From NCBI RefSeq assembly GCF_003018255.1, contig NZ_CP027440.1: a stretch of DNA of 64,000 nucleotides. One strand, written 5' to 3'. This stretch comes from Escherichia coli (GTDB lineage Bacteria > Pseudomonadota > Gammaproteobacteria > Enterobacterales > Enterobacteriaceae). The position numbers and the translations under genes are program-made. This document shows, piece after piece, positions 1 through 37,589 of this stretch. The number at the start of each line of letters is the position of its first letter. The stretch's first letter is position 1. The notes under the pieces are model-generated. The model ran no database searches, had not been told where the DNA came from, and saw nothing but the letters and a program-made list of their open reading frames with translations.

Positions 1-663
1 CGTAAAGCAGCGCAATCTGACCCGAACTGTTTCTTTATTGATGACGAGAATTCCCGCACGTTGTTCCTTGGGTATTCCGTCGCTGGCCAGCGTCTTAAAG
101 CGCAATTTGCCGAGCAAGGTCGTATTGTCGATGCTGATAACCCTCTGTTTGTCTATCTGCCGTGTGGTGTTGGCGGTGGTCCTGGTGGCGTCGCATTCGG
201 GCTTAAACTGGCATTTGGCGATCATGTTCACTGCTTTTTTGCCGAACCAACGCACTCCCCTTGTATGCTGTTAGGCGTCCATACAGGATTACACGATCAG
301 ATTTCTGTTCAGGATATTGGTATCGATAACCTTACCGCAGCGGATGGCCTTGCAGTTGGTCGCGCATCAGGCTTTGTCGGGCGGGCAATGGAGCGTTTAC
401 TGGATGGCTTCTATACCCTTAGCGATCAAACCATGTATGACATGCTTGGCTGGCTGACGCAGGAAGAAGGTATTCGTCTTGAACCTTCGGCACTGGCGGG
501 TATGGCCGGACCTCAGCGCGTGTGTGCATCAGTAAGTTACCAACAGATGCACGGTTTCAGCGCAGAACAACTGCATAATGCCACTCATCTGGTGTGGGCG
601 ACGGGAGGTGGAATGGTGCCGGAAGAAGAGATGGAGCAATATCTGGCAAAAGGCCGTTCATAA
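1..663 (+). CDS. dsdA: D-serine dehydratase, C-terminal part (5' end outside window)
   Basis: Frame open from position 1 to stop at 661-663; translation ends ...[13 protein letters not shown], consistent with PLP-dependent D-serine ammonia-lyase; followed by emrY as in E. coli. Confidence 0.88.
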
Positions 664-767
664 CGTTTCAACGCAGCATCGCCATCCTTTCCCTGGGTGA
701 GCGATGCTGCCGATGGCGCAGACTTAAGATCCCCGGTCTTACCTGCTATAATTCTCTCTTTATACCA

Positions 768-2306
768 TCACCCAACGCCTTTCGCTGTAAACGGCGGTTT
801 CGCAAACCAAACCAATACCGTAAGTAAGATAAAAGCAATAGCCGCCATACGGAAAATCTCATTTGCAGAAATTGAAAGTGACTGCTGAGTTATTTCATTA
901 TTAATTTCATTAAGAACTCCTGAAAGCGAACCATAGTATTTATCCATAATTTGTGACGATGAATTAAATACGGGGTTAAATTGATCGATGGTTGCTGTCA
1001 ACTGACTATGGTGTAACGATTCGCGTCGTCCCCACAGCGTCATTGTCAACGACGTACCAACTGATCCTGACAAGGTACGAAAAAAATTACTCATACTCGA
1101 GGCATTGGCAAATTTATTATCTGGCAACCCTGAAAACGAAATCGTTGTTAAGGGTAAAAAGAAACAGGCAACGGCGAATCCCTGGAAAAACTGTGGCAAA
1201 ATGATGCCTGTAAAATCAATCGTTGGCATAAATGTCACAGAACGCCAGTAATAGCAAACCGCATACATCAAAAAACTAAATGTCACCAACAACCGCATAT
1301 CAATTTTGTTGCCATAACGTCCTATCAAAGGTGATATTAATAGCGGCATGATGCCGATGGGCGCATAGGCAAGTCCGGCCCATATCGCATTATACCCCAT
1401 CGTTTCCTGGAGTAACTGCGGCATAAGGACTATCGCCCCAGAGTAAAATAAATACGCGCATGTGATACTCACAATACCAATGGTGAAATTACGGGACTTA
1501 AACAAACTGAGATCAAGAATCGGATTCTCTGAGGTCGACTCCCAAATGACTAAAGAAATCAGAGAAATAACTGACACTACTGTTAGTATTATTATTGTAC
1601 TCGAGTTGAACCAATCCAGATCGCGCCCTTTATCAAGCATTATCTGCAAGCCACCAACACCGAGCACTAACAGGGTCAGTCCTGGTAGATTCATTTTGAC
1701 CGGTGAAGTCTCAGTTTCTCTTCCTTTAAGTAAGGTTAAGCATAATGTCAGAACGATAATCCCCATAGGGACATTGATTAAAAATATCCAACCCCAGCTA
1801 AAGTTATCGCAAATATAGCCGCCCAATATCGGCCCACATATCGGAGCGATAATTACGGTCATTGACCATAATGCCAAAGCAAATGTTCTTTTTTCTGGCG
1901 GATAATTCCTTAATAATAAACTCTGTGACAGTGGAATTAACGGCCCCGCCATTAAGCCCTGAACGACTCTAAAAAATATCAGCACATCAAGATTGGTCGA
2001 TAGGCTACACATTAATGAAGATAGTGAAAAAAAGGTTACTGAAAGTAAAAATAATCTTAATTCGCCTATTCTTTGTGCCAGCCTGCCGGTAACAGGGATC
2101 GCAATGGCATTTGCTACGCCAAACGAAGTGATAACCCAGGTGCCTTCGTCTGTTGATGCTCCCAGAAAGCCAGATATTGTCGGTATTGCGACGTTAGAAA
2201 TAGTGGAATCCAACATTTGCATAAACGTCGCTAAGGACAATGCAATAGTAACGCACCATAACGTCCCACCGGTTAATGGTGCCGGAGTTGATTTAGTGAT
2301 TGCCAT
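768..2306 (-). CDS. emrY: MFS multidrug efflux permease (EmrB-like, 14-TM class)
   Basis: 512-aa ORF, hydrophobic throughout; start overlaps emrK stop at 2306; matches EmrY. Confidence 0.93.
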   Translation of the reverse strand: MAITKSTPAPLTGGTLWCVTIALSLATFMQMLDSTISNVAIPTISGFLGASTDEGTWVITSFGVANAIAIPVTGRLAQRIGELRLFLLSVTFFSLSSLMCSLSTNLDVLIFFRVVQGLMAGPLIPLSQSLLLRNYPPEKRTFALALWSMTVIIAPICGPILGGYICDNFSWGWIFLINVPMGIIVLTLCLTLLKGRETETSPVKMNLPGLTLLVLGVGGLQIMLDKGRDLDWFNSSTIIILTVVSVISLISLVIWESTSENPILDLSLFKSRNFTIGIVSITCAYLFYSGAIVLMPQLLQETMGYNAIWAGLAYAPIGIMPLLISPLIGRYGNKIDMRLLVTFSFLMYAVCYYWRSVTFMPTIDFTGIILPQFFQGFAVACFFLPLTTISFSGLPDNKFANASSMSNFFRTLSGSVGTSLTMTLWGRRESLHHSQLTATIDQFNPVFNSSSQIMDKYYGSLSGVLNEINNEITQQSLSISANEIFRMAAIAFILLTVLVWFAKPPFTAKGVG

Positions 2307-3469
2307 TAAAGTTGTCCATTATGCGAAATAATGTTGCTAATTTCTTTTTCTATCGGAGTAGTATCGATAACTAAAGCCTTACTGGTATAAGCAGGCATGG
2401 AGGTCACGGTTGAAGCCAGCTCAGGCATCTCAGCAATGTCTTCGTCCTTCGTATCAATAGTTGCAGTCATCGATAAACCAATACGTAAGGGATGTTCCAT
2501 GAGTTCTTTTGGATCAAGAGAAACTTCAACCGGTACACGCTGAACGATTTTGATCCAGTTCCCTGTCGCATTTTGTGCAGGTAATAAGGAGAACGCATTG
2601 CCGGTTCCCATATTGATTCCTGTCACCCGACCATGAAACACAACATTTTCACCATAAAGATCGCTGATAATATTGACCGATTGACCAATCCGTACATCCG
2701 TGAGTTGTGTTTCTTTAAAGTTGGCATTAACCCACATTTGACGTGCCGGTACGACAGCCATTAACGATTGTCCGGGACTCACTGTTTCGCCGACCTGAAC
2801 ACTTCGCTGGGCAATATAGCCGGTAACAGGACTCTTAATATCCGTACGTTTAAGCGCTAACCAGGCTTCTTTGGTTGCATCTGCCGCTTCAACGACTTGT
2901 GGCTGACGGTTTAATGGTGTGTTCATTACTAAAGCTTTATTCGCTTTATAAGCCTGGATAGCGGCATTCAATGCCGCTTTGCTACTTATTAACGTATCTT
3001 TGGTATGCTCCAGCGTTTCTTTTGAAATAACCCCCTGCTTCGCTAAAGGCACACGACGGTTATAATCTTCTAAAGATTGTTGATACTGAATACGTGCTGA
3101 AGCGACTTCGGCACTGTATTGTTTATCCTGTAAGTACAGTTTATTCGTTTGCCGAACAATATTTGCCAGATTATTTTTAGCTTTATTGAGTGCGATAGTG
3201 GCATCAGTCTTATCCAGTGAGACTAAAATGTCACCCTGTCGAACGTAGTTCGTATCTTTATGATTAACGACAGTGACGCTGCCTGAAACTTGTGCAGAAA
3301 TTGGATCTGCATTCCCCGTGACATAGGCGTCATCTGTACTAATCATGTCTTCTAATTCCATTGACCAATAGGCATAGGCACCTGAAAACGCAATAAATAA
3401 AACTACCGCCAATAAAGAAAAGTATTTTCTTCTGTTAGAATGTTTTTTATTTGAATTAATCTGTTCCAC
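2306..3469 (-). CDS. emrK: Membrane fusion protein of EmrKY efflux pump (HlyD family)
   Basis: 387-aa ORF with N-terminal TM anchor and coiled-coil-like middle; immediately upstream of emrY on same strand. Confidence 0.93.
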   Translation of the reverse strand: MEQINSNKKHSNRRKYFSLLAVVLFIAFSGAYAYWSMELEDMISTDDAYVTGNADPISAQVSGSVTVVNHKDTNYVRQGDILVSLDKTDATIALNKAKNNLANIVRQTNKLYLQDKQYSAEVASARIQYQQSLEDYNRRVPLAKQGVISKETLEHTKDTLISSKAALNAAIQAYKANKALVMNTPLNRQPQVVEAADATKEAWLALKRTDIKSPVTGYIAQRSVQVGETVSPGQSLMAVVPARQMWVNANFKETQLTDVRIGQSVNIISDLYGENVVFHGRVTGINMGTGNAFSLLPAQNATGNWIKIVQRVPVEVSLDPKELMEHPLRIGLSMTATIDTKDEDIAEMPELASTVTSMPAYTSKALVIDTTPIEKEISNIISHNGQL

Positions 3470-3642
3470 TTTTATCTCTCATTTCGCATAGATGAAATTT
3501 ATGAATTGAATGAAAAGAGTATTCATTCTTCATATCAAACACAGTGCATGTGTTGCACATTATCCCAGGAACGTTGGAGGCCTAATTTAAATGAGGTGCA
3601 AAAAAAACAACAGAGGACTAAACCGTGGCTTTTGCAATACAA

Positions 3643-3660
3643 TTCTTACGCATGTAGGAT
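3643..3660. promoter_or_regulatory. EvgA-box-like imperfect inverted repeat in emrK-evgA divergent promoter region
   Basis: TTCTTACG-CA-TGTAGGAT resembles the reported EvgA 18-bp motif TTCPyTACA-N2-TGTAPuGAA; about 175 bp upstream of emrK start. Confidence 0.5.
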
Positions 3661-3884
3661 TAGTGAGAAGACTTATAGTGCTAATGTGAAACTATAAATC
3701 ATCGGTACAATCCCTGATTTTATTGTTGACATTTCATTTATGCCGACTATTTATATGGTATACTTGTTGAATTATCTTAAAGGAAGCTCAAATTTTCTTA
3801 TTTTGATTGAGAAAATGAGATGATGCCTTATGTCTGTATTACTACAGGGAGAAGGGAAATGCTTCATTGCAAAGGGAATAATCT

Positions 3885-4499
3885 ATGAACGCAATAATTA
3901 TTGATGACCATCCTCTTGCTATCGCAGCAATTCGTAATTTATTGATCAAAAACGATATTGAAATCTTAGCGGAGTTGACTGAAGGGGGAAGTGCCGTTCA
4001 GCGGGTGGAAACACTTAAACCTGATATCGTCATCATTGATGTCGATATCCCCGGAGTTAACGGTATCCAGGTGTTAGAAACGCTGAGGAAGCGCCAATAT
4101 AGCGGAATTATTATTATCGTCTCCGCTAAAAATGACCATTTTTACGGGAAACATTGTGCTGATGCTGGCGCTAATGGTTTCGTGAGTAAAAAAGAAGGCA
4201 TGAACAATATCATTGCAGCTATTGAAGCTGCAAAAAATGGCTACTGCTATTTCCCCTTCTCTCTCAACCGGTTTGTTGGAAGTTTAACGTCCGACCAGCA
4301 AAAACTCGACTCCTTATCGAAACAAGAAATTAGTGTCATGCGGTATATTCTTGATGGCAAGGATAATAATGACATTGCTGAAAAAATGTTCATCAGCAAC
4401 AAAACTGTCAGCACTTATAAAAGTCGCTTGATGGAAAAATTAGAATGCAAATCACTGATGGATCTTTACACATTCGCACAACGTAACAAAATCGGCTAA
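3885..4499 (+). CDS. evgA: Response regulator EvgA (receiver domain plus LuxR-type HTH)
   Basis: 204-aa ORF; receiver motifs (IIIDDHP, DIVIIDVDIPG) and C-terminal HTH (ISNKTVSTYKSRLMEKL); AAGGGA Shine-Dalgarno upstream. Confidence 0.95.
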   Translation: MNAIIIDDHPLAIAAIRNLLIKNDIEILAELTEGGSAVQRVETLKPDIVIIDVDIPGVNGIQVLETLRKRQYSGIIIIVSAKNDHFYGKHCADAGANGFVSKKEGMNNIIAAIEAAKNGYCYFPFSLNRFVGSLTSDQQKLDSLSKQEISVMRYILDGKDNNDIAEKMFISNKTVSTYKSRLMEKLECKSLMDLYTFAQRNKIG

Positions 4500-4503
4500 C
4501 CAC

Positions 4504-7500
4504 ATGAAGTTTTTACCCTATATTTTTCTTCTCTGTTGTGGTCTTTGGTCGACCATAAGTTTCGCAGACGGAGATTACATCGAATATCGTGGCATCAGTA
4601 GTAACAACCGTGTCACACTTGATCCACTACGTCTGAGCAACAAGGAATTACGTTGGCTCGCGAGCAAAAAAAATCTTGTGATTGCAGTACACAAGTCCCA
4701 AACAGCTACGTTGTTGCATACCGATTCGCAGCAACGGATTCGTGGTATTAATGCTGATTATTTAAATCTTTTAAAAAGAGCGTTAAATATCAAATTAACA
4801 CTCCGGGAATACGCAGATCATCAAAAAGCAATGGACGCGCTGGAAGACGGTGAAGTTGATATAGTGTTATCACATTTAGTTGCTTCGCCGCCTCTTAATG
4901 ATGACATTGCTGCAACCAATCCTCTGATAATTACCTTTCCGGCGCTGGTCACTACCCTTCACGATTCAATGCGACCGCTTACCTCATCAAAACCAGTAAA
5001 TATTGCTCGAGTAGCAAATTATCCCCCAGACGAGGTAATTCATCAATCATTTCCAAAAGCAACAATTATCTCTTTTACAAATTTATATCAGGCATTAGCA
5101 TCCGTCTCAGCCGGACAGAATGATTACTTTATTGGTAGTAACATCATTACCAGCAGTATGATTTCCCGTTATTTTACTCACTCCTTAAATGTAGTGAAGT
5201 ATTATAACTCACCGCGTCAATATAACTTTTTATTAACCAGAAAAGATTCTATCGTTCTTAATGAAGTACTCAATCGATTTGTTGATGCTTTAACAAATGA
5301 AGTTCGCTATGAAGTATCACAAAATTGGCTTGATACAGGAAATCTGGCCTTTCTGAACAAACCATTAGAACTCACTGAACATGAAAAACAGTGGATTAAG
5401 CAGCATCCCGATTTAAAGGTGCTAGAAAATCCTTACTCGCCACCCTATTCTATGACAGATGAAACTGGCTCAGTTCGGGGCGTGATGGGTGATATTCTTA
5501 ATATTATTACCTTGCAAACAGGTTTAAATTTTTCTCCGATCACCGTTTCACACAATATTCATGCTGGGACACAGCTTAACCCCGGTGGATGGGATATATT
5601 GCCCGCCGCTATTTATAGTGAAGATCGAGAAAATAATGTTTCATTTGCTGAAGCCTTCATAACAACGCCTTACGTTTTTGTCATGCAAAAAGCGCCTGAC
5701 AGTGAACAAACATTAAAAAAAGGAATGAAAGTTGCCATTCCCTATTATTATGAGCTTCATTCGCAATTAAAAGAGATGTATCCGGAGGTAGAGTGGATAA
5801 AAGTCGATAACGCCAGCGCTGCATTTCACAAGGTTAAAGAAGGTGAACTTGATGCTCTGGTCGCGACACAGTTAAATTCGCGTTACATGATCGACCATTA
5901 CTATCCTAATGAACTTTATCATTTTCTTATTCCCGGCGTTCAGAATGCATCACTTTCGTTCGCTTTTCCTCGCGGAGAACCGGAACTTAAGGATATTATT
6001 AATAAAGCACTGAATGCAATTCCCCCAAGCGAAGTTCTGCGCCTGACCGAAAAATGGATTAAAATGCCCAATGTGACCATTGACACATGGGACCTCTATA
6101 GCGAGCAATTTTATATTGTTACGACATTATCCGTTTTATTAGTTGGCAGTAGCCTTTTATGGGGATTCTACCTGTTACGCTCAGTTCGTCGTCGTAAAGT
6201 TATTCAGGGTGATTTAGAAAACCAAATATCATTCCGGAAAGCGCTCTCGGATTCCTTACCGAATCCAACTTATGTTGTAAACTGGCAAGGTAATGTCATT
6301 AGTCACAATAGTGCATTTGAACATTATTTCACTGCTGATTACTATAAAAATGCAATGTTACCATTAGAAAACAGTGAATCCCCCTTTAAAGATGTTTTTT
6401 CTAATACGCATGAAGTCACAGCAGAAACGAAAGAAAACCGAACAATATACACACAGGTATTTGAAATTGATAATGGCATCGAGAAAAGATGCATTAATCA
6501 CTGGCATACCTTATGTAATCTGCCAGCAAGCGAACATGCTGTTTATATTTGTGGTTGGCAAGATATTACCGAGACGCGTGATTTAATTCATGCACTCGAA
6601 GTAGAGAGAAATAAAGCGATCAATGCAACTGTCGCAAAAAGCCAGTTTCTGGCAACAATGAGTCACGAAATAAGAACACCAATAAGCTCCATTATGGGCT
6701 TCCTGGAACTTCTGTCGGGTTCTGGTCTTAGCAAGGAACAACGGGTGGAGGCGATTTCACTTGCCTACGCCACCGGACAATCACTCCTCGGCTTAATTGG
6801 TGAAATCCTTGATGTCGACAAAATTGAATCGGGTAACTATCAACTTCAACCACAATGGGTCGATATCCCTACTTTAGTCCAGAACACTTGTCACTCTTTC
6901 GGTGCGATTGCTGCAAGCAAATCGATCGCATTAAGTTGCAGCAGTACGCTTCCTGAACGCTACCTGGTTAAGATCGACCCTCAGGCGTTTAAGCAGGTCT
7001 TATCTAATTTACTGAGTAATGCTCTCAAATTTACTACCGAGGGGGCAGTAAAAATTACGACCTCCCTGGGTCACATTGATGACAACCACGCTGTTATCAA
7101 AATGACGATTATGGATTCTGGAAGTGGATTATCGCAGGAAGAACAACAACAACTGTTTAAACGCTATAGCCAAACAAGTGCAGGTCGTCAGCAAACAGGT
7201 TCTGGTTTAGGCTTAATGATCTGCAAAGAATTAATTAAAAACATGCAGGGCGATTTGTCATTAGAAAGTCATCCAGGCATAGGAACGATATTTACGATCA
7301 CAATCCCGGTAGAAATTACCCAACAAGTGGCGGCTGTCGAGGCAAAAGCAGAACAACCTATAACACTACCTGAAAAGTTGAGCATATTAATCGCGGATGA
7401 TCATCCGACCAACAGGCTATTACTCAAACGCCAGCTAAATCTATTAGGATATGATGTTGATGAAGCCACTGATGGTGTGCAAGCGCTACACAAAGTCAGT

Positions 7501-8097
7501 ATGCAACATTATGATCTGCTTATTACTGACGTTAATATGCCGAATATGGATGGTTTTGAGTTGACTCGCAAACTCCGAGAGCAAAATTCTTCCTTACCCA
7601 TCTGGGGGCTTACAGCCAACGCACAGGCTAACGAACGTGAAAAAGGGTTAAATTGCGGCATGAACTTATGTTTGTTCAAACCGTTGACTCTGGATGTACT
7701 GAAAACACATTTAAGTCAGTTACACCAGGTTGCGCATATTGCACCTCAGTATCGCCACCTTGATATCGAGGCCCTGAAGAATAATACGGCGAATGATCTA
7801 CAACTGATGCAGGAGATTCTCATGACTTTCCAGCATGAAACGCATAAAGATCTACCCGCTGCGTTTCATGCACTAGAAGCTGGCGATAACAGAACTTTCC
7901 ATCAGTGTATTCATCGCATCCACGGTGCGGCTAACATCCTGAATTTGCAAAAGTTGATTAATATTAGCCACCAGTTAGAAATAACACCTGTTTCAGATGA
8001 CAGTAAGCCTGAAATTCTTCAGTTGCTGAACTCTGTAAAAGAACACATTGCAGAGCTGGACCAGGAGATTACTGTTTTCTGTCAGCAAAATGACTAA
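4504..8097 (+). CDS. evgS: Hybrid sensor histidine kinase EvgS
   Basis: 1197-aa ORF; signal peptide, large periplasmic region, TM, H-box (MSHEIRTPISS), receiver domain (LIADDHPTN...DVNMPNMDGF) and C-terminal HPt (HRIHGAANIL). Confidence 0.95.
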   Translation: MKFLPYIFLLCCGLWSTISFADGDYIEYRGISSNNRVTLDPLRLSNKELRWLASKKNLVIAVHKSQTATLLHTDSQQRIRGINADYLNLLKRALNIKLTLREYADHQKAMDALEDGEVDIVLSHLVASPPLNDDIAATNPLIITFPALVTTLHDSMRPLTSSKPVNIARVANYPPDEVIHQSFPKATIISFTNLYQALASVSAGQNDYFIGSNIITSSMISRYFTHSLNVVKYYNSPRQYNFLLTRKDSIVLNEVLNRFVDALTNEVRYEVSQNWLDTGNLAFLNKPLELTEHEKQWIKQHPDLKVLENPYSPPYSMTDETGSVRGVMGDILNIITLQTGLNFSPITVSHNIHAGTQLNPGGWDILPAAIYSEDRENNVSFAEAFITTPYVFVMQKAPDSEQTLKKGMKVAIPYYYELHSQLKEMYPEVEWIKVDNASAAFHKVKEGELDALVATQLNSRYMIDHYYPNELYHFLIPGVQNASLSFAFPRGEPELKDIINKALNAIPPSEVLRLTEKWIKMPNVTIDTWDLYSEQFYIVTTLSVLLVGSSLLWGFYLLRSVRRRKVIQGDLENQISFRKALSDSLPNPTYVVNWQGNVISHNSAFEHYFTADYYKNAMLPLENSESPFKDVFSNTHEVTAETKENRTIYTQVFEIDNGIEKRCINHWHTLCNLPASEHAVYICGWQDITETRDLIHALEVERNKAINATVAKSQFLATMSHEIRTPISSIMGFLELLSGSGLSKEQRVEAISLAYATGQSLLGLIGEILDVDKIESGNYQLQPQWVDIPTLVQNTCHSFGAIAASKSIALSCSSTLPERYLVKIDPQAFKQVLSNLLSNALKFTTEGAVKITTSLGHIDDNHAVIKMTIMDSGSGLSQEEQQQLFKRYSQTSAGRQQTGSGLGLMICKELIKNMQGDLSLESHPGIGTIFTITIPVEITQQVAAVEAKAEQPITLPEKLSILIADDHPTNRLLLKRQLNLLGYDVDEATDGVQALHKVSMQHYDLLITDVNMPNMDGFELTRKLREQNSSLPIWGLTANAQANEREKGLNCGMNLCLFKPLTLDVLKTHLSQLHQVAHIAPQYRHLDIEALKNNTANDLQLMQEILMTFQHETHKDLPAAFHALEAGDNRTFHQCIHRIHGAANILNLQKLINISHQLEITPVSDDSKPEILQLLNSVKEHIAELDQEITVFCQQND

Positions 8098-8103
8098 ATA
8101 GCG

Positions 8104-8136
8104 GCTCCCACAATGTTCAAATGTGGGAGCTATTTA
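8104..8136. terminator. Putative bidirectional intrinsic terminator between evgS and yfdE
   Basis: Perfect 9-bp stem GCTCCCACA / TGTGGGAGC with 9-nt loop, T-rich tail on plus strand. Confidence 0.6.
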
Positions 8137-8152
8137 CCAGCACATCTTACAT

Positions 8153-9298
8153 TTATGATGAGAACTCCTGGCGAATTTGTTCCCCATGCTGGTCGAGCGT
8201 TGCCGCTCCCGGCATAACATGCGGGTCCGCGCAGCCGCTGATTTTTATCGGATTCCCCGGCATCATTATTCCCCCGGCTTCAATCAACATATTTCTCGCC
8301 TGAGTTTGTGGCAAATTAATGGCCTCAGCCACACTTAATAACGGCGCGACGGGTACACCAACTTCATGTATTCTGGCTAACCAAACTTCAGCTGCCTGCG
8401 TTTTTAACGTCCGCTCAATATATTGTTTAAGAATAGCCTGGTTTTGTACGCGTAAAATATTGCTGCTAAATCTGGGATCATTAACCAGTTCCGTAAGCTC
8501 CAGTGCCTGGCATAACGCAGAAAAAAGCTTGTCATTACCACAACAAATCGTAATCGGCTTATCCTGAGTATCGAAAACATCAAAAGGTGCCATGTAGGGA
8601 TGGCGATTTCCCAGGCGTTGTGGTGACTTCCCTGTCGCAATATATGCCATCAGACCATGCTCCAGAAAACTCAGCGTGGCATCAAACATCGCTATATCGA
8701 CATGCGCCCCTCTTTGGCTCTTTTCGCGGCCATAAAGTGCACTCACTATTCCGCTGAATAAATAGACACCGCCGCATAGATCCGCAAGAGAGGTACCCAC
8801 GCGCACTGGCGGAGCATCAGGGTATCCTGTTTCCATCATTATCCCGCTCATTGCCTGAATGATGGTATCGTAGGCAGGAGCATCTTTTAGCGGACCGGTA
8901 TGTCCGAAACCTGACGATGAAGCATATATAAGGCGCGGGTTGATTTCTTGTAACCTTTCCCATGAAAACCCGAGTTTTTCCATTGTACCTGGGCGAAAAT
9001 TCTCAGCTAATACATCCGCTTGTTTAAGCATATTTATAAATATACTTTTATCGTGATCATTCTTTAAATCAAGAACCACACTCTCTTTGCCATGATTAAT
9101 AAAACTGTAATAGAGTGACTGTCCATCCACATAGGGACCAAATGTGCGGGTATCATCACCATGACCCGGCGGCTCAACTTTAATTACCCTTGCGCCCATA
9201 TTACAAAGAAGTTGAGTTCCGAAAGGCCCATTAAGGACATGCGTCATATCGATAACTAATAAGCCTTCAAACGGCCCTTTGCATTCATTATTTGTCAT
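8153..9298 (-). CDS. yfdE: Family III CoA-transferase (acetyl-CoA:oxalate CoA-transferase)
   Basis: ORF paralogous to frc in this window (both carry CoA-transferase family III motifs); start chosen at MTNNECKGPFEG (381 aa) rather than the first in-frame ATG at 9337. Confidence 0.88.
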   Translation of the reverse strand: MTNNECKGPFEGLLVIDMTHVLNGPFGTQLLCNMGARVIKVEPPGHGDDTRTFGPYVDGQSLYYSFINHGKESVVLDLKNDHDKSIFINMLKQADVLAENFRPGTMEKLGFSWERLQEINPRLIYASSSGFGHTGPLKDAPAYDTIIQAMSGIMMETGYPDAPPVRVGTSLADLCGGVYLFSGIVSALYGREKSQRGAHVDIAMFDATLSFLEHGLMAYIATGKSPQRLGNRHPYMAPFDVFDTQDKPITICCGNDKLFSALCQALELTELVNDPRFSSNILRVQNQAILKQYIERTLKTQAAEVWLARIHEVGVPVAPLLSVAEAINLPQTQARNMLIEAGGIMMPGNPIKISGCADPHVMPGAATLDQHGEQIRQEFSS

Positions 9299-9371
9299 TT
9301 GCTTATGCCTTGAAAAAAGCCGAAGGTGAAAAGACACTTCGGCATTTATGTAAAATCAATAACATGATTAA

Positions 9372-10316
9372 TTATGAAACCAGTCGACTGACATAAATCC
9401 ACAAAGGAGCCGTGACGACAAAACCCAGTACGCTCACAGCCAATGACGCTGTACCAGTGCGGGTGTAGACATTAAACCGGCTGGCAATAATGATTCCGGA
9501 GAATGCCGGCGGTAAGGCGCCTGCCAGTACCATCATCTGCAAATGTTCGCTGTTCAAATGACATGCCATACCAACGAGAAGCAGCGCCAGTGGCATCAGA
9601 ATCAGCTTCAGGAAGGTGTTATAAGCAATTTCGGCACTGAACTCGAATTTATGTGCAGCCAGAGTCAACCCCGCAGCGAATACCGCTACCCCTGAGTTAG
9701 CCTTCGCAATCAGATTAAAGGTTGGGTCCCATGCTGCCGGAATTTTTACCCCAACCAACACCAGGATCGTTGCCAGAACAGGTGCCCATACTACTGGCTC
9801 CTTTGCCGCAGAAATTAATGCGCTCAGATTACTATTCTTCTTACCATCCGCTCCTGAGGAAGGATTCAGCAAATACAGACCAATAGGAATAGTAATTGCA
9901 TTAACAATAATAGAAATAATTGCTACCACTAAACCTGTTGATACGGAATCACCATAAATAGGATCGAGAACTGCAAATCCCAGGAATCCAATGGTAGGTG
10001 AACCTGCAATTAATGCACATACTGCTGCTTCTGCATGAGTACGTTTAAAAAATTTGTAGCAACCGAACCAGGAGAAAAAGAAACATCCGACAATAACCAC
10101 AAGTGATACAAGGGTCAGACGAGTGTCCGCAAAAATCATTTCCCTGTTTGCCCGGGTAATAGATACAAATAGAGCTGCAGGAAGAGCGTAGTTTAATACC
10201 AGTTTATTAAATGCCCGGGCTTGATCTTCTGAAAAAGTTTCTCGTCTGCCGCTAAAATAACCCAACAGCATGATTACGATAATAGGCAATAAATCGCCAA
10301 TAAAAAATGTTAGCAT
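9372..10316 (-). CDS. yfdV: AEC-family membrane transporter
   Basis: 314-aa polytopic membrane ORF between yfdE and oxc. Confidence 0.88.
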
Positions 10317-10385
10317 AATAGTATTTCCGATAAGGGTCCCCTCACCATCGCATAATGAGTTGGCAAGAGGAGACGATGTCAGTAT

Positions 10386-12080
10386 TTAATTACCAGCGAC
10401 TTGTTTTGGGTTAAGTTTGGTAATATGGCCACTTTCAGTTCCTGCTGCAGGGTCGATGACCACATTAATAATGGTCGGTTTGCGCGACTGAATACCGGTG
10501 GTTAAAGCATGACGAAGTTCATCTGTCGTAGTGACGTTATAGCCAACGCCACGAAACGCATCCATTAATTTGTCATACCTTGCATGGTGCAGCAGATCCG
10601 TTGGTGATGGTGCACCAGCGCCGCTGAGATCAACACCGTCTCCTCTGTAGATGCCGCCATTATTAAAAATAACGATCGTCACCGGCAGGTTATATCGACA
10701 AATCGTTTCAATTTCCATCCCACTGAAACCAAAAGCACTATCACCTTCAATGGCAACAACCGGAGAACCAGAGGTCACGCTAGCACCGATGGCATAGCCC
10801 ATACCGATGCCCATGACACCCCAGGTGCCACAATCCAGACGACGACGTGGTTTATACATATCAATAATATTTCGTGCATTATCCAGGGTATTTGCCCCTT
10901 CATTAACTAAATAAATATCCTGGTTCTCGCGCAATACGTCGCGCACAGCACTTAATGCATTAAAGTAATTTAATGGTTGAGTATCTGTGCTTAACTTTTC
11001 ATGCATTTTTTGTGCATTTTGCTGCTTGTGGATATTTAAAATATCGCGCCATACCAGTGGAGTCGTAAATGTGTTTTGTTTCAGTTCTGCCAGCATACCT
11101 TGCATACTGGATGCAATATCGCCAACGACTGGCACAGCAATGGGGCGGTTGCTGTCAATTTCCTGCGGTTCAATATCCAGTTGAATAAACTGTGTATCTG
11201 CCGCCCATCCTTTTTTACCGTGTGCCAGTAACCAATTCAGTCGTGCACCAACAAGCATGACAACGTCAGCATTTGCCAGGGCAAACGAACGCGCAGCCGC
11301 CGCAGAAAGTGGATGCGTATCTTCGAGGATCCCTTTCGCCATAGACATTGGCAGGAATGGAATCTGGGCACTTTCAATAAATTCACGAAGCTGTTCATCC
11401 GCTTGTGAATACGCCGCGCCTTTGCCAAGGATAACTAATGGTCGTTCAGCTTTTGCTAATAGCGAAATTGCGCTAGCGACTGACTTCGGGCATGGCAATA
11501 ATGCTGGCGACGGATTTTCAACTTTTACAATCGTGGTTAACGCTTCGTCTTTTTCCATCGTCGCGGCCAGGACATTTGCTGGCAAATCAAGATAAACTCC
11601 GCCAGGGCGACCCGATACTGAGACCCGGATAGCGCGTGCCAATGCAATGCCAAGATCCTGCGGCTGATTAACGCGGAATGCTGCTTTGGCATACGGTTTT
11701 GCCGCATTCATTTGGTCCAGCTCTTCATAATCACCTTGCTGTAGGTCGACGATCGCGCGGTCGCTGGAGCCGCTAATCATGATCATCGGAAAACCATTTA
11801 CCGTTGCGTTGGCCAATGCGGTCAAACCATTGAGGAATCCTGGCGCAGAAACTGTCAGGCAGATCCCCGGTTTTTGGGTAAGAAAACCGCTTGCCGCAGC
11901 GGCATAGCCTGCCGACTGCTCATGACGAAAACCAATATAACGAATGCCTTCCGCCTGGGCATGGCGCGCCATATCCGTCACAGGAATACCTACAACACCA
12001 TAAATAGTGTCAATACCATTCTGTTTTAATGCTTCAACGATGATATGCATACCATCTGTCATTTGAAGTTGATCTGACAT
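10386..12080 (-). CDS. oxc: Oxalyl-CoA decarboxylase (thiamine-diphosphate dependent)
   Basis: 564-aa ORF with ThDP-binding motif (GDSAFGFSGMEIETICRYNLP...NN). Confidence 0.94.
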   Translation of the reverse strand: MSDQLQMTDGMHIIVEALKQNGIDTIYGVVGIPVTDMARHAQAEGIRYIGFRHEQSAGYAAAASGFLTQKPGICLTVSAPGFLNGLTALANATVNGFPMIMISGSSDRAIVDLQQGDYEELDQMNAAKPYAKAAFRVNQPQDLGIALARAIRVSVSGRPGGVYLDLPANVLAATMEKDEALTTIVKVENPSPALLPCPKSVASAISLLAKAERPLVILGKGAAYSQADEQLREFIESAQIPFLPMSMAKGILEDTHPLSAAAARSFALANADVVMLVGARLNWLLAHGKKGWAADTQFIQLDIEPQEIDSNRPIAVPVVGDIASSMQGMLAELKQNTFTTPLVWRDILNIHKQQNAQKMHEKLSTDTQPLNYFNALSAVRDVLRENQDIYLVNEGANTLDNARNIIDMYKPRRRLDCGTWGVMGIGMGYAIGASVTSGSPVVAIEGDSAFGFSGMEIETICRYNLPVTIVIFNNGGIYRGDGVDLSGAGAPSPTDLLHHARYDKLMDAFRGVGYNVTTTDELRHALTTGIQSRKPTIINVVIDPAAGTESGHITKLNPKQVAGN

Positions 12081-12133
12081 GATTAATAACCTCGAAATTT
12101 TTATAAATTGGGAGCCAGAAGCCCCCGTTAATA

Positions 12134-13384
12134 TCAGATGGCGTGGTTTTGCTTCATTGCAGCAATTTCATCGTCGCTATAACCCAGCTCCTGCAATACA
12201 GCAGCGGTATGCTCACCTAATAGCGGCGCAGCTTTAATATCCGGCGTAAAGGCAGAGAATTTCATTGGACAACCAACGGTCAGATATTTTCCACGCAACG
12301 GTTGTTCCACTTCGACAACACTACCACTTTGGCGCAAAGAGGGATCAAGTGAAATTTCTTTCATACTTAAAACCGGTGCACAAGGAATATCAAACTGAGT
12401 CAAATAGGCCACCGCTTCATGTTTATCAATAGTGACAGTGTATTTTTCGATTTCAGCAAAAATATCGAAAATATGTGGCTGTCGGGCATGGGCTGTACTG
12501 TATGCCGGATCGGTAATCCATTCTGGTTTGCCGATGGCTTTACAGGTGTTTTCCCAGTTTTGCTCCTGAATAGTGAAATAAATATAGGCGTTAGGATCGG
12601 TTTCCCAGCCTTTACATTTCAGGATCCAGCCAGGCTGACCGCCACCACCCGCATTACCACCGCGGGGAACTGCATCACCAAATGTGCCATTCGGATACTG
12701 CGGGTATTCTTCCAGATACCCCAACTTATCGAGACGCTGCTGGTCGCGTAATTTCACGCGGCAAAGGTTCAACACGGCATCCTGCATTGACATGGTGACT
12801 CGTTGCCCACGCCCCGTTTTTTCGCGATGCAGCAAAGCAGCAAGTAAACCGATCAGCAAATGCATTCCGGTGTTGCTGTCACCCAACGCTGCAGCGCTTA
12901 CCAGCGGCGGACCGTCCCAAAAACCTGTAGTAGATGCCGCGCCACCCGCTGCCTGAGCAACGTTTTCATAGGCTTTTACATTCACATAAGGCGAACACTC
13001 ATCAAACCCTTTGATCGAACCAAAAATCAGACGTGGATTGATTTCTTGAATATGCTCCCAGGTGAAGCCCATATGATCAATGGCCCCTGGATGAAAGTTC
13101 TCGACTAAGATATCAGCTTCGCGGATCAGCTTTTCCATTACCTCTTTGCCTTCCGCTGTTTTGGTATTTAATTCAATAGAACGTTTGTTACTGTTAAGCA
13201 TGGTGAAGTAAAGCGCATCGATATCAGGAATATCTCGCAGCTGGTGGCGCGTTACGTCACCAACGCCGGGACGTTCAATTTTAATGACGTCAGCGCCAAA
13301 CCAGGCCAGCATCTGAGTACAAGATGGGCCAGATTGCACACCAGTGAAATCGAGAACTTTAATTCCTTGAAGTGGAGTTGACAT
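12134..13384 (-). CDS. frc: Formyl-CoA:oxalate CoA-transferase
   Basis: 416-aa ORF, family III CoA-transferase; N-terminal [33 protein letters not shown]. Confidence 0.94.
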
Positions 13385-13635
13385 AGCAATACCTATTAGT
13401 TAATTAAATATATGTTAATTTAGCGTTTATTTAAGGCATAATGCTCTCTATAAATAATCCGCAAAATATCGTCGTAGCTGCACTCGATATTTTTAAATTC
13501 CTGTATCAAGTGCTGATAATCATTTCATCGCCACTTCCAATTCCTTTCTGCATGGTAAGTAGTGAGGACGAAAAGAAGAATATGATAAATATTGGTTCGC
13601 GGTAATCAGAGAGGGCCGCGACATTTGTGATGTTA

Positions 13636-13653
13636 TTCTTACAACTGTAAGAA
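13636..13653. promoter_or_regulatory. Perfect EvgA-consensus palindrome upstream of frc
   Basis: TTCTTACA-AC-TGTAAGAA read directly from sequence; exact match to TTCPyTACA-N2-TGTAPuGAA; about 250 bp upstream of frc start. Confidence 0.65.
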
Positions 13654-13896
13654 GCGCCGGTGATGTACAAGTAAGGGTATGATTACGCTTTTTAAAGCGT
13701 ACCATAAAACATAACATAATAAATGATTTATGATGACACGGGATTATTGCGGTTTACTTTGAAGAATATAAAATGCGAGTTTATAGCACCGCGAGCGCCA
13801 AATAATTTTATGGCCACAACCTGTCGTATTGTGGCCATAAAAAATTGTCGGCTGGAGGGAGTAAAATCCTTTACCTCAATATATTGCCTGTCAGCT

Positions 13897-14529
13897 TTAG
13901 TTCACAAACAGTGCTTCGCTATCGACGATGATTCCATCTTCCGCACCTTTAAGCGCCAGGTTTGCCTCGTAGTATTGCTTTTTATCAAGCAGTTTCTGCG
14001 CATCAGCAAGTGCATTACGAGTCTGTTTGAGCGGCATCAGATATTGGTTTTCCATTACACCAACACCGGCCAGGCGAAGCTCTTCCATTGCGCCCTTTTT
14101 ATCCCCTTTCGCCATTTTTTCGTTGGCAATTTTTATCGCGGCTTCTTTTTCGGGTGTCGCTACATAACTCTCAGAAATTCCGACAGATGCATTAATGACA
14201 ATATATTGGTCATCATTGAGATTGGTCTTTTTACCTGGCTTAGCGAACTTTGCCCATTCGGTACTGTCATCTGACAACAAAGCTGAAGCTTCATTGGTCA
14301 GTTCTTTTGCCTTTTCCGGATCGCCATGAAACAGAGCCAGGCGCGCTACCTGCACGTCACGCATCGCATATAAACCTTGTTCAGAGATACGCTCTGCTGC
14401 TGCCGTTTTCTGGGTTTGCTGAACTTGCTGAGTTTGCTGTTGTGCCGCTACCGGTGCATTATCAGCAGCCCATACAGTTGAAGATGCCAGAATTGCTGTG
14501 ACCATCGTAGCCATAATTAAACGTTTCAT
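13897..14529 (-). CDS. yfdX: Periplasmic YfdX-family protein
   Basis: 210-aa ORF with signal peptide ([21 protein letters not shown]), Q-rich linker; first gene of the yfdX-frc-oxc-yfdVE cluster. Confidence 0.9.
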
Positions 14530-14626
14530 ACTTACCTCATTCTTTAACAGTTTTAGAAAACGCCGCCATCATATTGGGTGAGCATGAAATGAGAAATCAG
14601 AGAGCAACGGTCATTTTGAAAGGGTT

Positions 14627-14682
14627 ATCTTACAGTTGTAGTTATTATCGCAAGAAGTATTTTAGTCTTACAATTGTAGGAA
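14627..14682. promoter_or_regulatory. Two tandem EvgA-box-like inverted repeats upstream of yfdX
   Basis: ATCTTACA-GT-TGTAGTTA (14627-14644) and GTCTTACA-AT-TGTAGGAA (14665-14682), 100-150 bp upstream of yfdX start. Confidence 0.55.
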
Positions 14683-14824
14683 TATGCTTCCTGTCACAGA
14701 GAACTATTCTTATATACCACAAAGAGATGTCATTTATTATATCGATGTAAATACTGATTAATTAAATGTAAATACAGCCATAACATCGTAGGTTCTCAGT
14801 GAACCATTTTCAGGATAACTTTCT

Positions 14825-15100
14825 ATGAAAGTAAACTTAATGATTTTTAGCTTATTTTTATTGGTCTCTATTATGGCATGCAATGTTTTTGCATTTTCCA
14901 TTTCTGGTGGTAGAAGTGAGACGAGCTATAAAGAGACAGAAAAAACGTCAGTGATGACGACAACTCATTCTACAAAACTTCAGCCATCACAGGCGATTTT
15001 GTTTAAGTTGAGAGAAGATGCGCCACCATTAAATCTCACAGAAGACATTACGCCCCCTTTTTCGACAAAGGCGAATTATCTTATTCATCCTGTGCGATAG
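14825..15100 (+). CDS. ypdI: Small secreted/lipoprotein-like protein
   Basis: 91-aa ORF with hydrophobic N-terminus (MKVNLMIFSLFLLVSIMAC); position matches ypdI. Confidence 0.75.
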   Translation: MKVNLMIFSLFLLVSIMACNVFAFSISGGRSETSYKETEKTSVMTTTHSTKLQPSQAILFKLREDAPPLNLTEDITPPFSTKANYLIHPVR

Positions 15101-15176
15101 CGTCTGTCACCTGGCAGGTGAACAATCATGCCTGATGCTGATGTGAACACCTGCCCAAATGAACCATCCTGACCCA

Positions 15177-15419
15177 CTAGCGCCTGCCATACCCCACCAT
15201 AAAGCGAATCATCAAGCCACAAGCCGGGGCAAGAAACATAAATATCCCCGTCACTAGTTCATTACCGCCAGTTAACCACATGGTGAAGTAGTAAATGAGT
15301 GCAGCGAGGATCACCATGCCGAAGAAAGAAGAGACCGCCGAGACCACGTTCAGTACCTGACCGATGTATCCGCTTACGCAGACAATACACAGGGCGAGAA
15401 ACATCCATAAATAAATCAT
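15177..15419 (-). CDS. yfdY: Small inner-membrane protein (two predicted TM helices)
   Basis: 80-aa hydrophobic ORF convergent with ypdI. Confidence 0.75.
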   Translation of the reverse strand: MIYLWMFLALCIVCVSGYIGQVLNVVSAVSSFFGMVILAALIYYFTMWLTGGNELVTGIFMFLAPACGLMIRFMVGYGRR

Positions 15420-15771
15420 AGCTCAACCTCCTGCCGCGCTAAAAAACCTGTAACTTCAGTCACTTTAATAGTAAGACAATCCTTAACCTCTGGCAATTTT
15501 TGCTAAGCATCAATGAAAACAGCACGTTAAATGCAACGCTATTGCGTGCGGAAAATTTTTTACTTTGCACGATTAATAATCAGTAGCTGAAAGCAGTCAG
15601 CCAGTGATAAAGTAGAGCCACCGCATTCATGCTCCTCGTGGTTATGTCCTGACTAGTCTTTACACTCTTTACAGGAACCATTGTCGTACATGATGGCCCA
15701 ACCAATTGAGTGTACCGCTGTCGACATGGAATCTTCTGCGATACAACAATTCGTATCTACAGAAGGTAACT

Positions 15772-16692
15772 ATGTTTCCACAATGCAAATTTTCCCGCGA
15801 GTTTCTACATCCTCGCTACTGGCTCACATGGTTTGGGCTTGGTGTACTCTGGCTTTGGGTACAGCTTCCTTATCCTGTTCTCTGCTTTCTCGGCACGCGT
15901 ATTGGCGCAATGGCGCGACCATTCCTGAAACGGCGTGAATCTATCGCCCGTAAAAACCTGGAACTTTGTTTCCCACAGCATTCTGCGGAAGAACGCGAGA
16001 AGATGATTGCCGAAAACTTTCGTTCACTCGGCATGGCGCTGGTAGAAACCGGCATGGCGTGGTTCTGGCCCGACAGTCGCGTACGTAAATGGTTTGATGT
16101 TGAAGGGTTGGATAACCTTAAACGCGCACAAATGCAAAATCGCGGCGTAATGGTTGTCGGCGTCCATTTTATGTCGCTGGAACTGGGCGGCCGCGTGATG
16201 GGACTGTGCCAACCAATGATGGCTACCTATCGTCCACATAATAATCAGCTGATGGAATGGGTGCAGACCCGTGGGCGCATGCGCTCTAACAAAGCGATGA
16301 TCGGCAGAAATAATCTGCGCGGCATTGTCGGTGCACTGAAGAAAGGTGAAGCGGTATGGTTTGCTCCCGATCAGGATTATGGTCGTAAAGGCAGCTCCTT
16401 CGCGCCGTTCTTTGCGGTGGAAAATGTCGCCACAACCAATGGTACGTATGTCCTTTCACGTCTCTCTGGCGCAGCCATGTTAACCGTAACGATGGTAAGA
16501 AAAGCAGATTACAGCGGATATCGTTTGTACATCACCCCAGAGATGGAAGGCTACCCGGCAGATGAAAATCAAGCCGCTGCCTATATGAACAAGATTATCG
16601 AAAAAGAGATCATGCGCGCACCGGAGCAGTACCTCTGGATCCACCGTCGCTTTAAAACGCGCCCGGTGGGAGAATCGTCGCTATACATTTAA
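15772..16692 (+). CDS. lpxP: Lipid A biosynthesis palmitoleoyl-ACP acyltransferase
   Basis: LpxL/HtrB-family ORF; start chosen at MFPQCKFSREFLHPRYW (306 aa) rather than upstream ATG at 15706. Confidence 0.9.
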   Translation: MFPQCKFSREFLHPRYWLTWFGLGVLWLWVQLPYPVLCFLGTRIGAMARPFLKRRESIARKNLELCFPQHSAEEREKMIAENFRSLGMALVETGMAWFWPDSRVRKWFDVEGLDNLKRAQMQNRGVMVVGVHFMSLELGGRVMGLCQPMMATYRPHNNQLMEWVQTRGRMRSNKAMIGRNNLRGIVGALKKGEAVWFAPDQDYGRKGSSFAPFFAVENVATTNGTYVLSRLSGAAMLTVTMVRKADYSGYRLYITPEMEGYPADENQAAAYMNKIIEKEIMRAPEQYLWIHRRFKTRPVGESSLYI

Positions 16693-16724
16693 CAAACTGC
16701 TCTTACTCTTTCCCTCCTCAAATC

Positions 16725-16760
16725 AGCCATAATAACCTCATGGTTTTTATGGCTTTTTTC
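16725..16760 (+). terminator. Putative intrinsic terminator after lpxP
   Basis: Stem AGCCATAA / TTATGGCT followed by TTTTTT. Confidence 0.6.
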
Positions 16761-17048
16761 TTAAGGTTTTTTCCTTCGCTGAATCTCTAATTATTACCGT
16801 CAGAAATTAAACTGTCGCCGATATGAGACACCTGTAAGTTACTAAAAGTAAATAAGAAAATGCCTCTTGTCTCGTTTCAGTTTTAGGCGTACATTAGCGC
16901 CGTCTGGAGCAGTTTAGCTCAGAATTCTGGGGTGATGCCCACGGTAAAATACAGGACTTTTAAGGTCGTTTTGCCCGGTGTCAACTCACTGTATCAGGTG
17001 TAATGAAGTCATTCAGGCGTAACAGTAATTACGCGGAGAGATGTAAAG

Positions 17049-17120
17049 TGAAATATTTCTTTATGGGCATTTCTTTTATGGTCATCGTTTGGGCCGGTAC
17101 TTTTGCCCTGATGATCTAAA
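17049..17120 (+). CDS. ypdK: Small hydrophobic membrane protein, 23 aa
   Basis: GTG-initiated ORF (V/M)KYFFMGISFMVIVWAGTFALMI, matching my recollection of the ypdK product; not in the supplied ORF track because of its length. Confidence 0.6.
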
Positions 17121-17183
17121 AGCAAACTGTGCAATGAAAAACAGGAGCCATCTGGCTCCTGTTTGCATTTCTGGCGATGGTGT

Positions 17184-18422: not shown

Positions 18423-18798
18423 AATTTCCTCAGATTAACGTTAGCGCCCGGACCGTCCGAGCGACGCTGCCACGATGGTGGCTGTTTTGAAAATAGCCTG
18501 ATTAATTTCTGTCTGTCCAGCGTTTTAGAACATTTTTATTAATGACGTTAAATGAGGAACTCTGCTTTAAAAACAGGAAATTTATCTGCGCTAACAAGAA
18601 AATTACCACCCATTTTATTAACATAATAATTTCAATAAATTTACTAACCAGAAGTGCATTATCAAGAGATGCATTGCTAATACACCATTTATCTATCAAT
18701 CCCCTTTTAAAATTGTGGTTTTTCCTCAAAAACGGCCTGCTGGTCATCAGCCTTCAGGTTACCTATCATAGAGGTTTAATCCTTATTCAGAGTCACCC

Positions 18799-37059: not shown

Positions 37060-37243
37060 AATGTGTCAACGGCAAATTGCCACGTGTAGTTTCAATCGCT
37101 GAAAAATCAGGCAAATGAACAATTTTGGAAAACCGCTCGCATTCAGTAGTTATTCATGTCACGGTTTCCTGTAAAGTGGTGTTATAAAATGAACTACTAA
37201 TAGACCCACATACATTCAGGGAATTGTTATGTTCAAGGAGAGG

Positions 37244-37588: not shown

Positions 37589-37589
37589 T

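Follow-up and report, generated by a model that had tools for sequence, protein, structure and literature searches.

An A/T-rich islet of probable horizontal origin, carrying emrKY-evgAS and the yfd oxalate genes, between dsdA and yfdY of Escherichia coli

The DNA analysed here, referred to below as the window, is a 64,000-nucleotide stretch of Escherichia coli (contig NZ_CP027440.1 of assembly GCF_003018255.1), and the subject of this work is the A/T-rich block near its left end, which carries the emrYK efflux genes, the evgAS two-component system and the yfd oxalate genes. Over positions 1-17000 the identity to E. coli strain JNE23-011 is 100%, and that to typical E. coli chromosomes 97-98%. 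Gene identities and coordinates are those of the RefSeq annotation of JNE23-011, and they agree with the gene names proposed in an initial annotation of the window made from its sequence. From left to right the window holds the 3' end of dsdA, emrY, emrK, evgA, evgS, yfdE, yfdV, oxc, frc, yfdX, ypdI and yfdY, and continues with lpxP, alaC, ypdABC and onward to murQ. EvgAS heads the cascade that confers acid resistance on E. coli in exponential phase, and its regulon is said to have been the object of studies by Masuda and Church in 2002/2003 and by Nishino in 2003. The features are listed below, with the G+C fraction (GC) and that of third codon positions (GC3) where they bear on the argument.

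1-663, plus strand: 3' end of dsdA, D-serine ammonia-lyase (RefSeq); left backbone flank, common to E. albertii.
664-712, plus strand: terminator-like hairpin of dsdA (GCAGCATCGC...GCGATGCTG); end of the E. albertii homology and left breakpoint.
713-15176, no strand: E. coli-specific A/T-rich segment of about 14.46 kb, not in the E. albertii dsdA-yfdY junction.
768-2306, minus strand: emrY, major facilitator superfamily (MFS) permease of the EmrKY-TolC efflux pump (RefSeq); GC3 0.417.
2306-3469, minus strand: emrK, periplasmic adaptor of the EmrKY-TolC pump (RefSeq); GC3 0.361.
3470-3884, no strand: spacer between the divergent emrK and evgA; GC 0.333; EvgA-box-like inverted repeat at 3643-3660.
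3885-4499, plus strand: evgA, response regulator with REC and GerE/LuxR helix-turn-helix domains (RefSeq; Pfam on homologues); GC3 0.42.
4504-8097, plus strand: evgS, hybrid sensor kinase (RefSeq; Pfam); GC3 0.369.
8153-9298, minus strand: yfdE, acetyl-CoA:oxalate CoA-transferase (RefSeq; function from PMC3720670).
9372-10316, minus strand: yfdV, putative transporter of the Mem_trans/AEC family (RefSeq; Pfam).
10386-12080, minus strand: oxc (yfdU), oxalyl-CoA decarboxylase (RefSeq); GC 0.476, GC3 0.411.
12134-13384, minus strand: frc (yfdW), formyl-CoA:oxalate CoA-transferase (RefSeq).
13385-13896, no strand: frc-yfdX spacer; GC 0.363; perfect match to the EvgA-box consensus at 13636-13653.
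13897-14529, minus strand: yfdX, periplasmic YfdX-family protein (RefSeq); closes the gene set in all other contexts.
14530-14824, no strand: spacer upstream of yfdX; GC 0.332; EvgA-box-like sites at 14627-14644 (3 mismatches) and 14665-14682 (1 mismatch).
14825-15100, plus strand: ypdI, small lipoprotein gene (RefSeq); GC3 0.359; within the E. coli-specific segment.
15177-15419, minus strand: yfdY (DUF2545), right backbone flank; GC3 0.63; its stop codon is the right breakpoint.

The hybrid two-component system and the efflux pump noted earlier in this block are evgAS and emrYK by RefSeq and Pfam. EvgS contains two SBP_bac_3 domains followed by HisKA, HATPase_c, REC and Hpt (Pfam, on the 100%-identical protein and on homologues), and together with the adjoining REC and GerE regulator EvgA it makes up a phosphorelay of the EvgAS/BvgAS type. 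The open reading frames of frc, oxc and yfdE are intact, with CoA_transf_3 and TPP_enzyme domains in their homologues. The claim of a complete oxalyl-CoA pathway rests on these three enzymes; yfdV is at most a putative oxalate transporter, and yhjX, encoded elsewhere, has been suggested as the homologue of the oxalate:formate antiporter OxlT (PMC3720670). A 14-nt perfect hairpin at 13806-13842 is probably the terminator of yfdX. No Rfam family was matched within the block, the only Rfam matches of the window being tRNAs at 36.8-40.1 kb. In its genes, their order and their strands the region is that described for the EvgAS regulon of E. coli K-12, emrKY-evgAS-yfdXWUVE (PMC3720670, PMC5706723, PMC4283999), from which nothing essential differs.

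The initial annotation had described positions 768-15420, by eye, as an A/T-rich acid-resistance block inside a GC-richer backbone, and the measured base composition bears this out. The GC of this interval is 0.428 as opposed to 0.514 in the remainder of the window, where every other stretch of 14.65 kb has at least 0.491. The ten genes from emrY to ypdI have GC3 values of 0.36-0.44, whereas the mean for the remaining 42 genes of the window is 0.576 (Mann-Whitney p = 1.8e-5); when pooled, GC3 is 0.398 in the block versus 0.583 elsewhere in the window. At second codon positions the two gene sets do not differ (0.392 versus 0.399, p = 0.64), and therefore amino-acid composition is not behind the low GC of the block. 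Codon usage sets the block apart as well: block genes have a Karlin distance of 0.43 from the remainder of the window, the others one of 0.31 (p = 1e-4), and the codon adaptation index, calculated with Sharp-Li weights, is 0.25 versus 0.36 (p = 0.002), the ranking being unchanged when ptsHI-crr, cysK and gltX of the window were used as the reference set. CTG, CCG, GTG and AAC are rarer in the block, and TTA, AAT, ACA and CAA are commoner. The shift in dinucleotide signature is modest, with a delta* of 39 for the block versus at most 35 in control chunks. Total GC is uneven among the block genes (0.40-0.41 in evgAS, 0.476 in oxc and frc) but GC3 is uniform; as the gap vanishes at third positions, it reflects protein composition, and uniform GC3 over all ten genes fits a single origin. 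The right edge had to be moved from 15420 to 15177, the stop codon of yfdY, which is the edge in both composition and structure, yfdY being conserved backbone. Smaller A/T-rich pockets were also seen outside the block, in yfeD (GC3 0.43) and yfeC (0.47) at 37229-37982, in yfeN (0.47) at 43750-44514, and in the xap spacers at 41100-41350 and 43502-43749 (GC 0.32-0.35).

The limits of the block can be read from E. albertii-type contigs, defined as those whose AlaC matches the protein of E. albertii NBRC 107761 exactly; one of them belongs to GCA_000155105.1, which we take to be strain TW07627. Their gene order is alaC-ypdK-lpxP-yfdY, about 340 bp of spacer, and dsdA-dsdX-dsdC-argW, and in blastn they match the window solely at 1-682 (94.4% nucleotide identity) and 15187-20000 (85-89%). 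On the left side the aligned homology spans the terminator hairpin of dsdA, the second arm of which is kept to about 711. On the right side, alignments of seven species (E. coli, E. albertii, E. marmotae, E. fergusonii-named, two Citrobacter species and Salmonella arizonae) reach the yfdY stop codon at 15177-15179 and have nothing in common beyond it. Judging from these alignments, the E. coli-specific segment extends from about 713 to 15176, over 14.46 kb. The 340-bp spacer of E. albertii shows no similarity to the ends of the block or to ypdI, and the idea that it holds remnants of a deletion was rejected on these grounds.

After the yfdY stop codon the DNA differs by lineage. In E. coli it is the evg block and in E. 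albertii dsdA; E. fergusonii-named contigs have a cluster of MFS, MarR, amidase and Rieske dioxygenase genes resembling an aromatic-degradation cluster; E. marmotae CP025979.1 has a lambdoid prophage directly after yfdY (Ead/Ea22, RecT, cI/Cro-like, CII and DnaB; locus L098, 10343-20297), which fills the whole 10 kb examined there; and Citrobacter and Salmonella have pgtP and pgtCBA, with an additional omptin gene in Salmonella. The yfdY stop codon thus looks like a recurrent hot spot of insertion or replacement. In GCA_017527845.1 (locus L096) YpdA and YpdB are 100% identical to those of the window, AlaC 99%, LpxP 87.6% and YfdY 75%, and other cargo follows yfdY, a pattern that suggests either that a recombination event ended between alaC and lpxP or that the genome is a hybrid. 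In the Salmonella enterica subsp. arizonae locus L028, pgtP (13575-14881) and pgtA (15705-16610) are each split into two open reading frames and pgtB and pgtC are missing, and phosphoglycerate transport seems to be in decay in this strain.

Among alaC-anchored loci from 80 species, the yfd genes and the block were present in the E. coli locus only, although in this set the E. albertii contig (L004) ends just past alaC and is uninformative. The same gene set was found at unrelated places in other hosts. A search with EvgS returned full-length relatives at 81%, 64%, 57% and 54-55% identity, and the order emrY-emrK-evgA-evgS-yfdE-yfdV-oxc-frc-yfdX is collinear in Yersinia and in a Rahnella/Ewingella-like host. 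In the Yersinia copy, assigned to this genus by exact matches of EvgA and of a neighbouring AsnC-family protein to NCBI Yersinia-named proteins, the nine proteins are 81-96% identical in amino acids to those of E. coli (EmrY 91%), with unrelated genes on the left and arsRBC and tRNA-Gly(CCC) on the right. The Rahnella/Ewingella-like order is smpB, transfer-messenger RNA (tmRNA), a D5-type primase gene, slp, the nine genes, hdeD and hdeB; the Yersinia and Rahnella-like copies lie 3-4 kb from tRNA-Gly(CCC) and tmRNA, respectively. A conjugative IncFIB plasmid of Klebsiella variicola carries the seven genes from evgA to yfdX, without emrYK, with the insertion sequence (IS) IS6 on one side and IS5/IS3/IS1 on the other, and locus L095 contains a version with decayed oxalate genes. 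Across the copies the divergence from E. coli rises and falls jointly for the nine genes, which behave as one transferable unit as far as gene order and divergence can tell. The gene ypdI does not belong to this unit elsewhere, as tblastn of loci L084-L088 gave no match. GC3 of the cassette is lower than that of its flanks or host in Yersinia (0.36 versus 0.46) and on the Klebsiella plasmid (0.58 versus 0.73). In several of these non-E. coli hosts slp lies directly on one side and hdeD with an hdeA/B-like gene on the other (L085, 4901-5485 and 19361-20308; L088, 5422-5964; L095, 17339-18271), and in some hosts the cassette may be fused to slp and hdeDB.

Within E. coli the block is nearly universal, in line with published surveys. 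In complete genomes, at a coverage of at least 80%, evgAS and yfdE-yfdX were each found in 5394 of 5426 and emrYK in 5382 of 5426, and an empty dsdA-yfdY junction of the E. albertii type was found in none of the 5426. The presence and absence comparison proposed with the initial annotation therefore gives each part of the block in more than 99% of E. coli genomes and none of it in the E. albertii junction. In the complete-genome set evgAS also has 25 plasmid matches; E. coli IncF plasmids carry an extra evgAS copy of 97-98% identity bracketed by IS1. On plasmid NZ_AP027874.1 (L089, 12311-18407) this second evgA-evgS has about 98% protein identity and lies, IS1-bracketed, near a YmgB/AriR gene and betT. 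A plasmid-borne copy of the master acid regulator could change the dosage of acid resistance.

As for the age of the block, the identity between E. coli and Yersinia at four-fold degenerate sites of the cassette is 37-53%, with 25-27% expected from composition, and thus in the range of alaC, ypdA and lpxP between E. coli and Citrobacter, Salmonella or Serratia. Synonymous sites are thus near saturation even against the closest foreign copy. A recent transfer between Escherichia and Yersinia was rejected, the four-fold identity being no higher than that of backbone genes at family or genus distance. Near-saturated synonymous sites, fixation in the species and the lack of integrase, att or flanking repeats support an old acquisition. 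The foreign origin proposed at the outset is supported by the atypical composition and codon usage, the gap in E. albertii, the presence in the E. coli locus only among the alaC loci and the unrelated contexts elsewhere. From codon-position regressions, with Muto-Osawa coefficients, a donor of about 40-46% GC can be roughly estimated.

According to these data it is highly probable that the segment at about 713-15176 is an old horizontally acquired genomic islet, now fixed in E. coli; that the event was a gain rather than a loss is something that we infer. The islet would have come to lie with the dsdA terminator on its left and the yfdY stop codon on its right, within the variable segment from argW to yfdY-lpxP-alaC, and would later have lost all scars of mobility. 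Its core would be the nine genes, emrY-emrK divergent from evgA-evgS, followed on the opposite strand by yfdE-yfdV-oxc-frc and yfdX.

Several observations weigh against this interpretation and must be taken into account. RefSeq annotates no integrase or transposase at the E. coli edges, repeats of the 3' end of argW are absent from the window and from the 31 kb upstream of it, and direct or inverted repeats bracketing the block are limited to short chance matches. Integration at argW is not supported as an explanation, as dsdCXA lies between the block and argW and is present in E. albertii without the block; simple integration at this tRNA gene was rejected for this reason and for the lack of argW-derived repeats. 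As to the polarity of the event, a clean loss of the block from E. albertii would look no different from a gain in E. coli, and other Escherichia species are only partly informative in this respect: the E. fergusonii-named and E. marmotae loci show the yfdY junction alone. Moreover, a very old block should have reached a higher GC3 by amelioration, so either it is younger or its A/T-richness is maintained. The difference in total GC between evgAS and oxc/frc is a further point, and in the Rahnella-like host the cassette is not A/T-rich relative to its flanks (GC3 0.526 versus 0.503). Finally, for the consensus used below for EvgA sites, agreement with the literature is limited to the positions of the sites (PMC3720670).

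The regulation of the block is relevant to both its origin and its composition. A search with the 18-bp EvgA-site pattern TTCYTACANNTGTARGAA, allowing up to three mismatches, gave four matches in the window versus 0.6 expected, all of them in the A/T-rich spacers of the block: at 3643 between emrK and evgA, at 13636 upstream of frc (perfect), and at 14627 and 14665 upstream of yfdX. The repeats in front of yfdX and frc are where the literature on K-12 puts them: a figure legend in PMC3720670 describes EvgA-bound inverted repeats upstream of yfdX and of yfdWUVE, both activated, and the yfdX promoter has been employed as a direct reporter of EvgA (PMC5706723). The Yersinia and Rahnella-like copies keep the box of the emrK-evgA spacer in the corresponding spacer, and therefore the wiring travels with the genes. 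With 33-36% GC, the three spacers are the kind of DNA that is coated by H-NS. Expression of emrKY is reportedly raised in an hns mutant (Nishino and Yamaguchi 2004). Genomic SELEX (systematic evolution of ligands by exponential enrichment) located H-NS sites in the emrK-evgA and frc-yfdX spacers (PMC3946193), and ChAP-seq (chromatin affinity precipitation with sequencing) found evgA, frc (in table S2) and the emrK-evgA and oxc-frc spacers bound by H-NS, whereas lpxP, alaC and ypdA were not (PMC4720273).

These published data support wording the xenogeneic silencing proposed in the initial annotation as H-NS-bound and inducible through EvgA. At neutral pH, H-NS would hold the promoters of the block low. 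Under mild acid EvgS would become active, and phospho-EvgA would bind the 18-bp inverted repeats in the A/T-rich spacers and switch on emrKY, evgAS itself, yfdX and frc-oxc-yfdVE, after which the oxalate enzymes would use up one proton per oxalyl-CoA decarboxylated. We infer that EvgA would in this way act as a counter-silencer that relieves H-NS repression.

One alternative is that the A/T-richness is actively maintained rather than being the fading trace of a donor, H-NS coating and its relief by EvgA being the way the cassette is regulated. It would account for a block that stays 18 GC3 points under its host although it is fixed across the species, for a cassette GC3 under that of the host in three of four hosts (Yersinia, E. 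coli and the Klebsiella plasmid), and for the position of the EvgA boxes in the most A/T-rich spacers, which are H-NS SELEX sites. However, cassette GC3 tracks the GC rank of the host (0.36, 0.40, 0.53 and 0.58), as ordinary amelioration predicts, there is no A/T shift whatever in the Rahnella-like host, and selection on promoter spacers cannot explain low GC3 over 12.6 kb of coding sequence. We regard active maintenance as rather unlikely; it complements the old acquisition of the islet and does not exclude it.

A second alternative is that the block is a mosaic of at least two acquisitions, emrKY-evgAS and yfdX-frc-oxc-yfdVE, that became adjacent in E. coli. The two parts do differ in total GC (0.40-0.42 versus 0.45-0.48 for the yfd genes), and three published methods flag evgA as transferred while one flags frc. 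Also in its favour, E. coli plasmids carry IS1-bounded evgAS that moves by itself, the copy on the K. variicola plasmid has no emrKY, Klebsiella kvhAS is linked to yfdX-hdeDB without oxalate genes, and a more distant relative of EvgS (43% identity) has no oxalate genes nearby. Nevertheless, GC3 is uniform and the GC gap, located at first and second codon positions, is one of protein composition; three independent hosts have the genes in collinear order between different flanks; the divergence of the nine genes from E. coli co-varies across copies; and a single pair of breakpoints removes both halves in E. albertii. A mosaic formed in E. coli is therefore improbable, and if the cassette was put together from parts, as may well be the case, this preceded its arrival in E. 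coli.

The last alternative, that the block is native, vertically inherited DNA with low GC3 due to weak expression, relaxed codon selection or local mutational bias (e.g. in H-NS-coated and seldom transcribed DNA) and is absent elsewhere through repeated deletions, could draw on the lack of mobility genes or repeats at the edges, the near-universal presence in E. coli, a synonymous divergence from the Yersinia copy similar to vertical descent since the family split and the faster evolution of H-NS-bound DNA (Higashi et al., PMC4720273), but it is very improbable, since poorly expressed backbone genes of the window (ypdC, ypdE, yfeO, xapR and pdeA) keep a GC3 of 0.53-0.61, the chromosomal site of the cassette is not the same in E. 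coli, in Yersinia and in the Rahnella-like host and it also lies on plasmids between IS elements, 79 of the 80 alaC loci lack it (the E. albertii one being uninformative), as does, without remnant, the E. albertii junction, and it is A/T-shifted in Yersinia as well.

Going beyond the acquisition of the islet, we lean, if only slightly, to a broader proposal: that the nine genes form a discrete self-regulated acid-stress cassette that moves among Enterobacterales with its own sensor, regulator and sites, is placed near tRNA or tmRNA genes or on IS-bounded plasmids, and brought its regulator to E. coli pre-wired, with the yfdY stop codon as a recurrent hot spot of insertion in Escherichia, Citrobacter and Salmonella. 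If sensor, regulator, sites and first effectors did arrive in one H-NS-coated cassette, this would be a clean case of an acquired regulator wired into a host network, and the top acid regulator of E. coli would later have captured the chromosomal targets ydeO, gadE and safA. Arrival as a cassette would also explain why the "core" genes emrKY and evgAS recur in lists of transferred genes, and the conjugative and IS-bounded plasmid copies indicate that the module can still spread. Current views are not overturned by this finding.

The foreign character of these genes, their base composition, their transfer flags and their binding by H-NS have already been published gene by gene. The genes evgA, evgS, emrK and emrY have been classed as core and are nonetheless listed in HGT-DB in a published survey; among H-NS-bound genes predicted to be transferred (HGT-DB, Lawrence and Ochman 1998, Nakamura 2004; Higashi 2016, PMC4720273), evgA is flagged by all three sources and frc by HGT-DB only. 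Those lists do not contain the 14.5-kb unit, its junctions, the empty site of E. albertii or the cassettes in other genera. A limited literature search found no account of the cassette as such a mobile unit. The unit with its junctions, the empty site, the yfdY breakpoint and the circulation of the nine genes are modest additions.

The acid fitness island of E. coli (slp-gadA, with hdeAB, hdeD and gadE) is likewise A/T-rich, H-NS-repressed and part of the EvgA-YdeO-GadE cascade (PMC6394985 and established knowledge). It lies elsewhere in the E. coli genome, outside the window, but slp, hdeD and hdeB adjoin the evg cassette in the Rahnella-like host and in L095; therefore what are two islands in E. 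coli would seem to belong, in some other hosts, to a single larger acid module. KvgAS/KvhAS-yfdX of Klebsiella pneumoniae and BvgAS of Bordetella have EvgS-type kinases with two periplasmic SBP_bac_3 domains and a NarL/GerE-type regulator. In Klebsiella, yfdX and hde genes are linked to these loci, but linked oxalate genes are not described there in the literature consulted, and KvhS-like proteins have 48% identity over about 42% of EvgS; BvgAS controls virulence whereas EvgAS controls acid resistance. The block also resembles islands linked to tRNA or tmRNA genes in its atypical composition, its patchy distribution and its variable segment beside argW, but it differs from them in having no integrase or att repeats and in having the dsd operon before argW.

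In this strain the DNA to the left of the block reads yfdC, tRNA-Arg(CCT) argW, a DUF4942 remnant, cscBKAR, a truncated dsdX and dsdA, and the csc and dsd genes thus separate argW from the block, some 7 kb further right. The csc sucrose genes and the truncated dsdX, just left of the window, distinguish this strain from K-12. The argW-dsdA interval (L083, 24316-30178) contains cscB, cscK, cscA and cscR but lacks dsdC and an intact dsdX. In Lelliottia, Enterobacter, Klebsiella, Superficieibacter and Phytobacter argW-yfdC is found 2-9 kb from alaC. In Erwiniaceae (Pantoea, Erwinia and Mixta; L057-L077) an EmrAB-like pair lies about 300-3000 bp after alaC, with 25-37% identity to EmrK/EmrY; this pair is too distant for orthology with emrKY, and the shared position is probably coincidental. 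At about 43700 of the window there is a 1-bp indel relative to JNE23-011, in or just before the xapA-yfeN spacer, and the coordinates of the genes downstream are shifted by +1.

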